Source: Candidatus Spongiisociaceae bacterium (lineage in GTDB: Bacteria; Actinomycetota; Acidimicrobiia; Spongiisociales; Spongiisociaceae). From it: DNA of 64,000 bases. The notes beneath the pieces are model-generated. The model saw only the letters and a list, made by a program, of their open reading frames with translations, ran no database searches and was not told where the DNA came from. Both the position numbers and the translations under genes were made by a program. The stretch covers positions 3,872,001 through 3,936,000 of the forward strand of contig CBDCOH010000002.1 in the NCBI GenBank assembly GCA_965219685.1, given 5' to 3'. Shown piece after piece: positions 10,893 to 36,689 of this stretch (positions within the stretch are counted from its first letter, which is position 1; the number at the start of each line of letters is the position of its first letter).

Positions 10893-11133
10893 TGGGCAAC
10901 GGACCAGACAAGGAGTCTCGGCAAGTGGGCACGAGGGCGGTTCGACCTGATACTGCAATCGAGTCGGACCAGGCCGACCAGGACGCCGAGACTCCGTACG
11001 AGATCTTGAGCCGCTTCGACCTCGGACCGGGTGGGTATGCGGTTGCGTCGGCCAGTAGGGCGAAGGAAGCGGTGGTCAAGGTGATCAGGGAGAAGCACGG
11101 TCGGTGATCCTTATGGATGTCGCTCCTGGGTGA
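10892..11133 (+). pseudogene. Probable TA remnant: antitoxin-like small ORF (10892-11107) plus a 9-codon PIN-toxin stub (11104-11133)
   Basis: GTGA overlap into VILMDVAPG-stop, resembling the VapC N-terminus MILVDxGP; lies just before repeat copy A. Confidence 0.4.
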
Positions 11134-11159
11134 CCGAACTCGGAGCGACGGAGGACGGC

Positions 11160-11395
11160 GACGTGTCACACCCCCGTTGCATACTGGCAAGTAGCTGCAA
11201 ACACCACCGGTCCGTTGCCGGTACCGATCGGACCGGGGCGGGGATCATGTGGGAGCCAACCCTTGCGGGGGATGGCGAGACGCGTTCGTAGACTGCGGAG
11301 GTGGCGGTTGGGGGTGGGCCCGACGGATGGATCCGCCCGGCCGGGGGCGGTTTTCGCGTTCTCGGGTCCCCTTCGGCGGCGGTCCGCTGCGGTGC
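11160..11395 (+). repeat. Dispersed ORF-less structured element, copy A (candidate ncRNA / non-autonomous element)
   Basis: Near-identical to the reverse complement of 36262-36532 and homologous to 25424-25635; starts TGTCAC-N10-CATACT; hairpin CCGGTCCG..CGGACCGG. Confidence 0.8.
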
Positions 11396-25320: not shown

Positions 25321-25423
25321 GAGTGGCCTGCCCATGGAACAGCCAGCCGTTCCCTGCTCGCCGGCGACGCCTCTCGCTGCGTTCCATGGACCGACCACTG
25401 GTCCGGATCGTGGTTGGCGAGTC

Positions 25424-25635
25424 CGTGTCACACCCTCGTTCTACGTTGTTGGATAACCGTAAGCACCAGTGGTCCGGCTCCCGGCGTCGACCGGACCGCG
25501 CGAGGGAACATATCGTTGTGGCCGCTCCGCTCAGGGGGCCCAGGCGGGACGCGTCCGACACCAAGGTGGTGGCGGCTGGGGGAGGGCCCGATGGGGGAGG
25601 GGTGCTAGGCGGTGGCGGTTTTCGCGCTCTTGGTC
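25424..25635 (+). repeat. Dispersed ORF-less structured element, diverged copy B
   Basis: TGTCAC-N10-TACGTT start; conserved blocks GGTCCG..CGGACC, GACGCGT, GGTGGCGGyTGGGGGwGGGCCCGA, GGCGGTTTTCGCG. Confidence 0.7.
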
Positions 25636-25663
25636 TGACCGGGCGCCTTCCCGAGGGGTGCCC

Positions 25664-25936
25664 GTGCTGATCGTTCCGTGCCCCAACTGCGGCCCCCGGA
25701 ACTCTGCCGACCTGCGCTACGTGGGGGAGTCCCGTCCCAGACCTGATCCCAACTCGGCCACTGCCGCCGAGTGGCGCGCCTACCTGTACGAGAGGGCGAA
25801 CCCCGCAGGAATGTTGCGTGAGACCTGGTACTGCCGCTCCGGCTGCCGCCGCTACTTCACACTCGAACGCGACACCGTCACCAACGAGTTCGCCGACCCG
25901 CCGACACCTGTCCCCAAGATCGGGAAGAGGCCGTGA
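25664..25936 (+). CDS. soxD: Sarcosine oxidase delta / MgdB-like subunit
   Basis: PCPNCGPR, YLYERANPAG, GCRRYF..RDTVTNE. Confidence 0.88.
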   Translation: MLIVPCPNCGPRNSADLRYVGESRPRPDPNSATAAEWRAYLYERANPAGMLRETWYCRSGCRRYFTLERDTVTNEFADPPTPVPKIGKRP

Positions 25937-36164: not shown

Positions 36165-36261
36165 CCTCTCAGGTGAGGCCGAATGCACCGCCGCCACTTC
36201 ACAGACGGACCGCTAGGTGTCCTGACTCCCGGATTCGTTATCGACTCTCGGAACGTACCGA

Positions 36262-36532
36262 CCACCGCAGCGGGCAGCCCCCGGGGACCCGAGAACGCGA
36301 AAAACGCCCGGCCGGACCCTCCCGGGACCCGAGAACGCGAAAAACGCCCCCGGAGGGTGGATCCATCCGTCGGGCCCACCCCCAACCGCCACCTCCGCAG
36401 TCTACGAACGCGTCCTGCCATCCCCGCAAGGGTCGGCTCCCACATGATCCCCGCCCCGGCCCGATCGGTACCGCAAACGGACCGGTGGTGCTTGCGGCTA
36501 CCTACCAGTATGCAACGGGGGTGTGACACGTC
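36262..36532 (-). repeat. Dispersed ORF-less structured element, copy C (inverted), with internal 40-bp-period duplication
   Basis: Reverse complement near-identical to 11160-11395; GGGACCCGAGAACGCGAAAAACGCCC at 36284-36309 and 36324-36349. Confidence 0.8.
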
Positions 36533-36539
36533 TCTGGCC

Positions 36540-36626
36540 CGTTGTCCGTTGTCCGTTGTCCGTTGTCCGCTGTTGGTTCTCCGTCGTCCGTCGTGCCGGT
36601 TGCGGTAGCAGCGGTCAACGGACAAC
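36540..36626. repeat. Heptamer tandem repeat (CGTTGTC)x4 plus degenerate units, with inverted partner CAACGGACAAC
   Basis: Directly visible; abuts the promoter end of copy C. Confidence 0.85.
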
Positions 36627-36689
36627 CCCCTCGTTACGAATTGCCCGGTACCGCGGCCCGCTATCACAGCGAACCGAAGACTCGGACCG

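Follow-up and report, generated by a model that had tools for sequence, protein, structure and literature searches.

The window, a 64,000-nt stretch of the genome of a Candidatus Spongiisociaceae bacterium (Acidimicrobiia), holds three homologous intergenic copies of a short element, here called A, B, and C. The initial annotation had described these as a three-copy element. Its coordinates were borne out, with a mean column identity of 74% among the three, but the family proved to be larger than three. The copies and their parts, in window positions, are:

11160..11395, + strand: copy A as first delimited; family homology covers 11162-11369.
11164-11169 and 11180-11185, + strand: copy A promoter, TGTCAC and CATACT with a 10-nt spacer, without the TTGAC-like box that most copies carry.
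11192..11358, + strand: predicted RNA of copy A, ~165 nt, its 5' end inferred from the offset of leaderless genes and its 3' end from a U run.
25321..25664, + strand: copy B insertion, between two co-directional genes.
25426-25431, 25442-25447, and 25619-25626, + strand: TGTCAC (preceded by a displaced TTGG box), TACGTT, and, after the RNA core, TTTTCGCG of copy B.
Up to 25664, + strand: copy B right arm, which ends GAGGGG immediately before the downstream GTG.
36217..36689, - strand: whole mobile unit of copy C, between CTAG at 36693-36690 and CTAG at 36216-36213.
36630-36618, - strand: GGGGGTTGTCCGT of copy C, followed by an inserted ~88-bp segment with (CGGACAA)n.
36528-36523 and 36512-36507, - strand: copy C promoter, TGTCAC and CATACT, with the RNA core after it.
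3' side of copy C, - strand: GCGTTTTTCGCGTTCTCGGGTCC twice, 40 bp apart, and a right arm that ends ...GGAGTCAGGACAC.

The GCGTTTTTCGCGTTCTCGGGTCC duplication of copy C falls within 36262-36345 (- strand), and another copy (C2:2114281-2114381) has three TTTCGCG words at 20-nt spacing. Between the end of the upstream gene (10892) and copy A lies a possible ORF of ~63 codons (10917-11107, + strand), ending in VIREKHGR and a stop.

The three window copies represent a family of ~215-bp intergenic modules with ~48 copies in their own genome and many more in relatives. In the own genome (G000; 4.42 Mb, 65% G+C, two contigs, 96.7% complete), nhmmer returned 49 matches after three rounds, 48 of which span more than 150 of the 207 model positions, so that the multicopy status proposed for the element holds. 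Identity to copy A was roughly 69-93% in the nhmmer set, and a BLAST search with copy A gave 31 matches. Of 40 relatives searched, 24 belong to the same family and 17 of these matched the element (7 of 7, 3 of 3, and 7 of 8 genomes in three genera); the 16 that represent other families of the order gave 0 matches. A scan of named species genomes for the G-rich block found at least 108 stretches, with the element in at least 87 among the matches listed; most of the 108 come from Acidimicrobiia metagenome-assembled genomes with titles that indicate a sponge or coral host, Candidatus Spongiisocius included. The covariance model that we built matched 0 of 140 other genomes sampled across Acidimicrobiia, and plasmid and phage collections gave no match to the element. 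So far, the family is known only from one family of sponge- and coral-associated Acidimicrobiia. The suggestion that it belongs to no known RNA family also stood: a search of the window against Rfam 15 at the gathering threshold gave 0 matches, and copy A with 20 diverse copies gave only chance-level matches at permissive thresholds (E 6-9). In the literature, we found no paper on the element and no occurrence of the term 'Spongiisocius'.

Extending the 48 own copies by 150 nt placed the conserved unit at ~215 bp, from aGGGGGTTGa to GTTTTTCGCGnTCTcgg, within copies of about 205-470 bp. The sharp left edge reported at CGTGTCACACCC holds among A, B, and C, but most copies stay homologous for ~12 nt further left, into aGGGGGTTGa. 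A TTGAC-like box lies 17 nt before the CATACT hexamer, with TGTCAC between the two, 10 nt before the hexamer. On this side the window copies are atypical: A is without the TTGAC piece, in B it is shifted by 4 nt, and in C it lies ~95 nt upstream, behind the inserted heptamer-repeat segment. After the promoter, the blocks run in the order GCCGCAAnCACC, P2, GGGATCA, variable P3, GACGCG, short P4, AGGTGGYGG, TGGGGGnGGGCCC, a variable hairpin P5, and then GTTTTTCGCG. The G-rich GGTGGCGG-TGGGGG-GGGCCC block and TTTTCGCG, first seen as retained in three copies, are nearly invariant across copies. As an independent genomic repeat, TTTTCGCG has 47 sites outside the copies, not above the composition expectation. 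The element carries no conserved ORF, as had been proposed; spacings between anchors fall in all three mod-3 classes, and a reading-frame test that used a rough regular expression found each frame open in only 21-29 of 48 copies. We rejected the idea that the flanking arms are a separate repeat entered by the core, as arms were found only beside cores.

The segment inserted between the TTGAC box and TGTCAC of copy C (36531-36617, - strand) is rich in G, A, and C and made of tandem (CGGACAA)n or GGACGGA heptamers. A duplicated GGGTTGTCCGT borders the segment in a sister copy (C2:3675330-3675425), and a related stretch precedes copy A (11120-11161). Tandem heptamers of the CCAACTA type adjoin one copy (C2:2324836-2324870) and occur at ~20 other places in the genome.

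The consensus of the PafBC-activated RecA-NDp promoter places TGTCA(C/G) around -26 at a fixed distance from a TAnnnT -10. PafB is described as touching the -26 motif and RecA-NDp promoters as reaching beyond mycobacteria (PMC11804915, PMC8223512). The promoter-type reading of the initial annotation was upheld in the own genome, where TGTCAC-N10-TAnnnT lies upstream of recA and repair genes with a motif spacing identical to that of the element. TGTCAC and, after 10 nt, the hexamer (CATACT in A and C, TACGTT in B) were found in all three window copies as reported. Of the 48 own copies, 40 carry TGTCRS-N10-YAnnnT, as do 45 of 76 foreign ones, the latter often with a canonical TACGTT or TATGTT -10. 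At C2:965-966 kb, two WYL-domain ORFs (325 and 310 aa) lie next to each other in a pafBC-like layout.

Genome-wide, TGTCA[CG]-N10-TAnnnT occurs at 36 sites, one of them inside a copy; when the first base of the -10 was allowed to be C or T, 39 of 113 genome matches fell in copies. High-GC3 ORFs lie within 260 nt of 21 of the 35 sites outside repeats, with a start codon mostly 28-32 nt from the T of TGTCAC. The transcription starts predicted for the window copies (about 11192, 25454, and 36500) fit this start-codon offset of leaderless repair genes. Eight of 10 motif-linked ORFs scanned with Pfam matched repair- or nuclease-type families, namely Lhr helicase, Mg-chelatase/ComM-like ATPase, UPF0102 (YraN), RmuC, HhH-GPD glycosylase, PD-(D/E)XK nuclease, RhuM/Fic, and a five-copy HNH protein. 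The candidate genes behind the motif are of the make-up expected of a PafBC regulon. Upstream of recA (C2:801960-802130), an SOS-box-like palindrome, GCGAACACACGTTCGAT, is accompanied by TGTCACTG-N8-TACCTT, which suggests that recA is under dual LexA and PafBC-type control in this genome. Two features count against the promoter reading of individual copies: the -10 of A and C starts with C rather than T, and A and C have no TTGAC box at the usual distance.

The five-copy HNH gene encodes 452 aa (C2:468613, 512299, 1412504, 1750630, and 4118681). Each gene begins 30 nt after a near-identical GTTTATGTCACAG...TACAAT promoter and looks leaderless; one of the five sits 137 nt downstream of a repeat copy. 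As a partner of the element, the HNH family was rejected because the distributions differ among relatives, with the element found without the HNH gene in G003, G005, and G006, and the HNH gene without the element in G008 and G019.

Downstream of the promoter, we set the structure of the predicted RNA by inspection of alignments, because RNAalifold on a plain MAFFT alignment and averaged base-pair probabilities gave little beyond P2. A model was then built, 105 copies from the own and other genomes were aligned to it, and the structure was tested by counts. In copy A (all + strand), its parts are:

11195-11198 (CTGC) and 11202-11205 (CACC), with 11300-11303 (GGTG) and 11304-11307 (GCGG): P1.
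11207-11214 with 11229-11236: P2, with the loop palindrome CGGTACCG at 11219-11226.
11241-11247: GGGATCA.
11255-11276: P3 hairpin.
11279-11284: GACGCG.
11285-11288 with 11296-11299: P4.
11308-11321: G-rich tail.
11322-11349: P5 region.
11350-11358: GTTTTCGCG.

Across the 105 sequences, 72.0% of cells pair compared to 64.4% in shuffles, and the covariation score is 0.229 compared to 0.137 in shuffles, none of 500 of which reached 0.229; with partners slid by 1-3 columns, the score was 0.04-0.08. Covariation bears out the proposed conserved RNA-type fold for P1 and P2. P2, the first stem of the initial annotation (CCGGTCCG/CGGACCGG), is real: it covaries, with double changes in 8 of 8 pairs and 88% of cells paired. 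The long-range pair of P1 is A-U in 57 sequences, G-C in 28, G-U in 16, and another combination in 2. The model mis-registers subfamily 2 at P1b and P4, so counts there were made per subfamily on a MAFFT alignment, which gave 227 of 232 paired cells for P1 in subfamily 1 and 96 of 105 in subfamily 2, and for P4 95 of 116 and 31 of 45. In well-supported helices, 180 G.U and 40 A.C combinations were counted, compared to 222 and 98 in shuffles; the stronger depletion of A.C fits an RNA read from the sense strand.

Several observations count against the RNA reading. In the model-based alignment, only 54-70% of the cells of P3, P4, and P5 are paired, and part of the P1 covariation tracks the split into two subfamilies, which leaves few independent events. 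Template-switch mutation can also perfect local hairpins without selection on RNA. Folding energy was no better than that of dinucleotide shuffles for the sense strand (mean z +0.35 over 44 copies, 1 of 44 below -2) or the antisense strand (mean z -0.03, 1 of 44 below -2), and copy A alone gave a z of +0.64. A search of sequencing runs turned up no RNA run that contains the region. The long-range GACGCG/TTTTCGCG pairing that had been proposed failed, as 22 of the 105 sequences have an uncompensated A.C in place of its middle pair, which is G-C in 72. Self-complementary words are frequent in the P2 loop: a 6-mer of this kind occurs in 86 of 101 copies, against a mean of 17.9 in shuffles, and an 8-mer in 60 of 101, against 3.9. 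The words vary among copies (CGGTACCG, GACGTC, CGACGTCG, CGGCGCCG). This palindrome could serve loop-loop dimerisation of the RNA or could equally be a zero-spacer palindrome in DNA.

Comparison with relatives revealed orthologous sites empty of the element for A, B, and C. The report of no target duplications is wrong for copy C, whose 473-bp unit has CTAG at both ends; at this site the congener G007 has ~100 nt of other sequence with a single CTAG and no element, and G001 is likewise without the element. The other copy checked for such flanks, C2:2324511-2324836, is also bounded by CTAG. Copy B is a 344-bp insertion, ~90% identical among G000, G007, G041, and G022. In at least 11 other relatives, the two genes that flank it are only 0-28 nt apart. 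G001 has no copy A in the orthologous spacer, where ~160 unrelated bases correspond to the whole 530-bp spacer of copy A. Terminal inverted repeats exceeded the 99th percentile of a mismatched-flank control in 0 of 48 copies, and the ends are weak. By eye, ~12 copies share the right end ...GGAGTCAGGACAC, next to TAG, and copy C and one other copy show GTGTCCTGAsTC-like ends. An IS5-family insertion sequence of 845 bp, with four copies at 100% identity (C2:171200-172050 and three identical ones) and one at 87%, appears recently active. It has CTAG flanks and GGCGTGTTCAC ends, loosely like GTGTCCTGAC of the repeat, which makes it a possible helper, as a lead rather than a finding. A gene of the IS630-type DDE_3 kind was not found in the 96.7% complete genome.

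Two subfamily-2 copies are orthologous across congeners, with flanks only 69-77% identical overall. Between G000 and the distant ortholog, identity at the two loci was 83% and 66% in the P1-P2 half, 84% and 79% in the ACGCG...GGGCCC block, and 86% and 85% in the TTTTCGCG block, compared to 35-53% in adjacent intergenic DNA and 33-52% in P3 and P5. Blocks that are invariant among paralogs are thus also retained by individual loci between species, which speaks against junk copies that decay neutrally, and the best-supported reading is that individual copies are kept by purifying selection after insertion. At one orthologous locus, TCGCGAAWA is kept ~30 nt upstream of the TTGAC box as an inverted partner of the 3' TTTTCGCGA; a strict pattern finds it at that position in 5 of 48 copies.

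[quoted passage not shown] Each module would be one small RNA gene, with TGTCAC at about -26, (C/T)AnnnT as the -10, and usually a TTGAC-like box before. The predicted RNA of ~165 nt would pair its 5' end with GGUGGYGG ~100 nt downstream (P1) and so enclose hairpins P2 to P4; next would come a G-rich tail that is conserved and single-stranded (UGGGGGNGGGCCC), then hairpin P5 and GUUUUUCGCG. DNA transposition would have spread the modules, carried by a MITE-like, non-autonomous unit that inserts at CTAG, with single copies then retained by purifying selection. After DNA damage, PafBC activated by single-stranded DNA would turn on all copies together, and the abundant RNA would act in trans via its invariant unpaired blocks. 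Its most likely mode would be to titrate or bind a damage-response protein or nucleic acid. We favour binding through the G-rich tail and the GGGAUCA/GACGCG joints, since all of them are invariant, unpaired, and shared by ~48 co-regulated genes. Copy number, distribution, the match of the promoter motif to that of the local repair regulon, covariation in P1 and P2, insertion polymorphism, and orthologous conservation are what we observed; transcription, RNA ends, damage induction, and the role in trans are what we infer here. As for the initial annotation, its observation was partly confirmed overall and its interpretation partly supported.

The strongest competitor is that the family is a purely selfish DNA repeat of the MITE or REP-like kind that has no RNA function, with promoter and hairpins being leftovers or DNA-level sites of the moving enzyme. 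The CTAG duplication and the insertion polymorphism would be expected of such a repeat, as would its placement, with no copy seen inside a gene (an ORF scan flags an overlapping ORF at 3 of 48) and 21 of 48 copies between convergent genes. A folding energy equal to that of shuffled sequence fits as well, and so does the perfect palindrome that the P2 loop forms, like a zero-spacer DNA inverted repeat, in 86 of 101 copies. However, orthologous copies hold their internal blocks at 79-86% compared to 35-53% in neighbouring intergenic DNA, and conservation is much higher in the interior than at the ends, where a transposase substrate would be expected to show the opposite. The covariation of P1 across ~100 nt and the depletion of A.C mismatches beyond that of G.U also speak against it, and we regard a purely selfish repeat as unlikely.

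A further reading, which we consider decidedly unlikely, is a mobile regulatory cassette whose damage promoter and terminator-like end act in cis by driving, insulating, or antisense transcription, with the transcribed part being minor. Copy B lies in co-directional orientation inside an operon-like pair, its right arm giving GAGGGG just before the GTG, and several right arms end AGGAG. At 31 of 48 copies a short distance separates the element from a downstream gene that points towards it, and transcripts running on into that gene would be antisense. That this gene is opposed in 31 of 48 also means that the module is not a leader. Against the cassette, a co-directional downstream gene is present at only 17 of 48 copies. 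Moreover, conservation is strongest in the transcribed part rather than in the promoter alone, and the neighbour genes have no function in common. Around more than 70 foreign copies, no shared neighbour gene recurred and the neighbours were unrelated housekeeping genes, while the largest shared cluster among 354 neighbouring ORFs, counted on either side and either strand, had 7 members.

It is very unlikely that the modules encode a guide-type RNA (bridge RNA, seekRNA, or omega RNA) serving a recombinase or nuclease that has its gene elsewhere and would also move the element, and the guide or template role first suggested found no support. Its attraction lies in the size and own promoter of the element, in 23 matches to the IS110 transposase domain in the own genome, and in an IS110-family element that sits within a copy at CCAC^GTTTTTCGCG and whose relatives use the same target elsewhere. 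However, the neighbour genes are unrelated, with no recombinase gene beside the copies, and matches of internal segments to their own flanks do not exceed those to the flanks of other copies (direct, mean 8.25 compared to 8.24; reverse-complement, 8.15 compared to 8.26). Similarity between the core and the non-coding ends of the own genome's IS110 elements is limited to ~20 nt around GTTTTCGCG. On these three grounds an IS110 bridge RNA was rejected. There was no HEARO or other Rfam match, TnpB was not found in the 96.7% complete genome, and the CTAG duplication points to a DDE transposase. The genome has five DUF222 genes, none linked to copies.

The IS110-family element itself is 1.5 kb long (C2:1190919-1192414) and lies exactly at the CCAC^GTTTTTCGCG junction. 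Two sister copies are at CCAC^GTTTTCGCGAAGCCTC sites, with uninterrupted versions of the site elsewhere, e.g., at C2:105050 and C2:3147621. The left end of the element repeats the target word ~55 nt inside (CGCGAAAAC), and a second IS group has CCGGGGAAAC in both places. Such repetition of the target word would be the pattern expected of a bridge-RNA target loop.

Returning to a damage-inducible small RNA gene family, two more specific roles can be imagined, both of which we hold to be speculative and improbable. The RNA could be active in the damage response: G-rich and induced by PafBC, it would bind either the PafBC WYL domains or a different repair protein with affinity for single-stranded DNA or RNA, giving feedback. 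Alternatively, it could be active in the spread of the element, in which case an RNA needed for mobilisation would define a new RNA-dependent non-autonomous transposon. To our knowledge, work on PafBC has so far dealt with protein-coding targets. If the favoured reading is correct, the modules would be an undescribed RNA family, in which a small RNA carried by a repeat is integrated into the PafBC damage response of actinobacteria, with ~48 genes per genome firing together in uncultured sponge symbionts. The abundant RNA output would add a testable layer to the PafBC response, and the family would be a clear case of a mobile repeat with cargo held by selection at single loci across species. 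Without a covariance model, these ~200-bp intergenic blocks stay unannotated in Acidimicrobiia genomes.

Among known systems, MITEs are the closest in form, and the Correia elements of Neisseria are an example that carries promoters or yields small RNAs. The same is reported for Coxiella MITEs (PMC10969869, PMC5896051). Like MITEs, the present element is short, ORF-less, multicopy, and intergenic, shows insertion polymorphism and a short target duplication at a TA-containing site, and is predicted to bring a promoter and be transcribed. Unlike them, it has degenerate inverted ends and a PafBC damage-type promoter, its interior is a complete promoter and structured-RNA unit that is better conserved than the ends, and it is kept at orthologous loci across species.

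REP13E12 of mycobacteria is a multicopy element of ~1.4 kb that encodes DUF222/HNH proteins and is transcribed from a RecA-independent, PafBC-type damage promoter. The present element resembles it as a multicopy actinobacterial element with a predicted PafBC-type damage promoter but is without an ORF; the layout of the five-copy 452-aa HNH gene is, separately, reminiscent of the mycobacterial 13E12 repeats. With the bridge RNA of IS110, the seekRNA of IS1111, and the omega RNA of IscB/TnpB (HEARO), it shares the character of a structured RNA of ~170-200 nt from a mobile element, whereas it differs in its CTAG duplication and in being without an adjacent enzyme gene, a guide-to-flank match, or a sequence or Rfam match. 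Small RNAs of the 6S and CsrB/RsmZ types titrate proteins. In the present element, dosage would come from ~48 gene copies rather than from motifs repeated within one RNA, for a partner that is only hypothetical, but the functional analogy, and only that, extends to invariant unpaired motifs on a structured scaffold and to a high dosage expected on induction.
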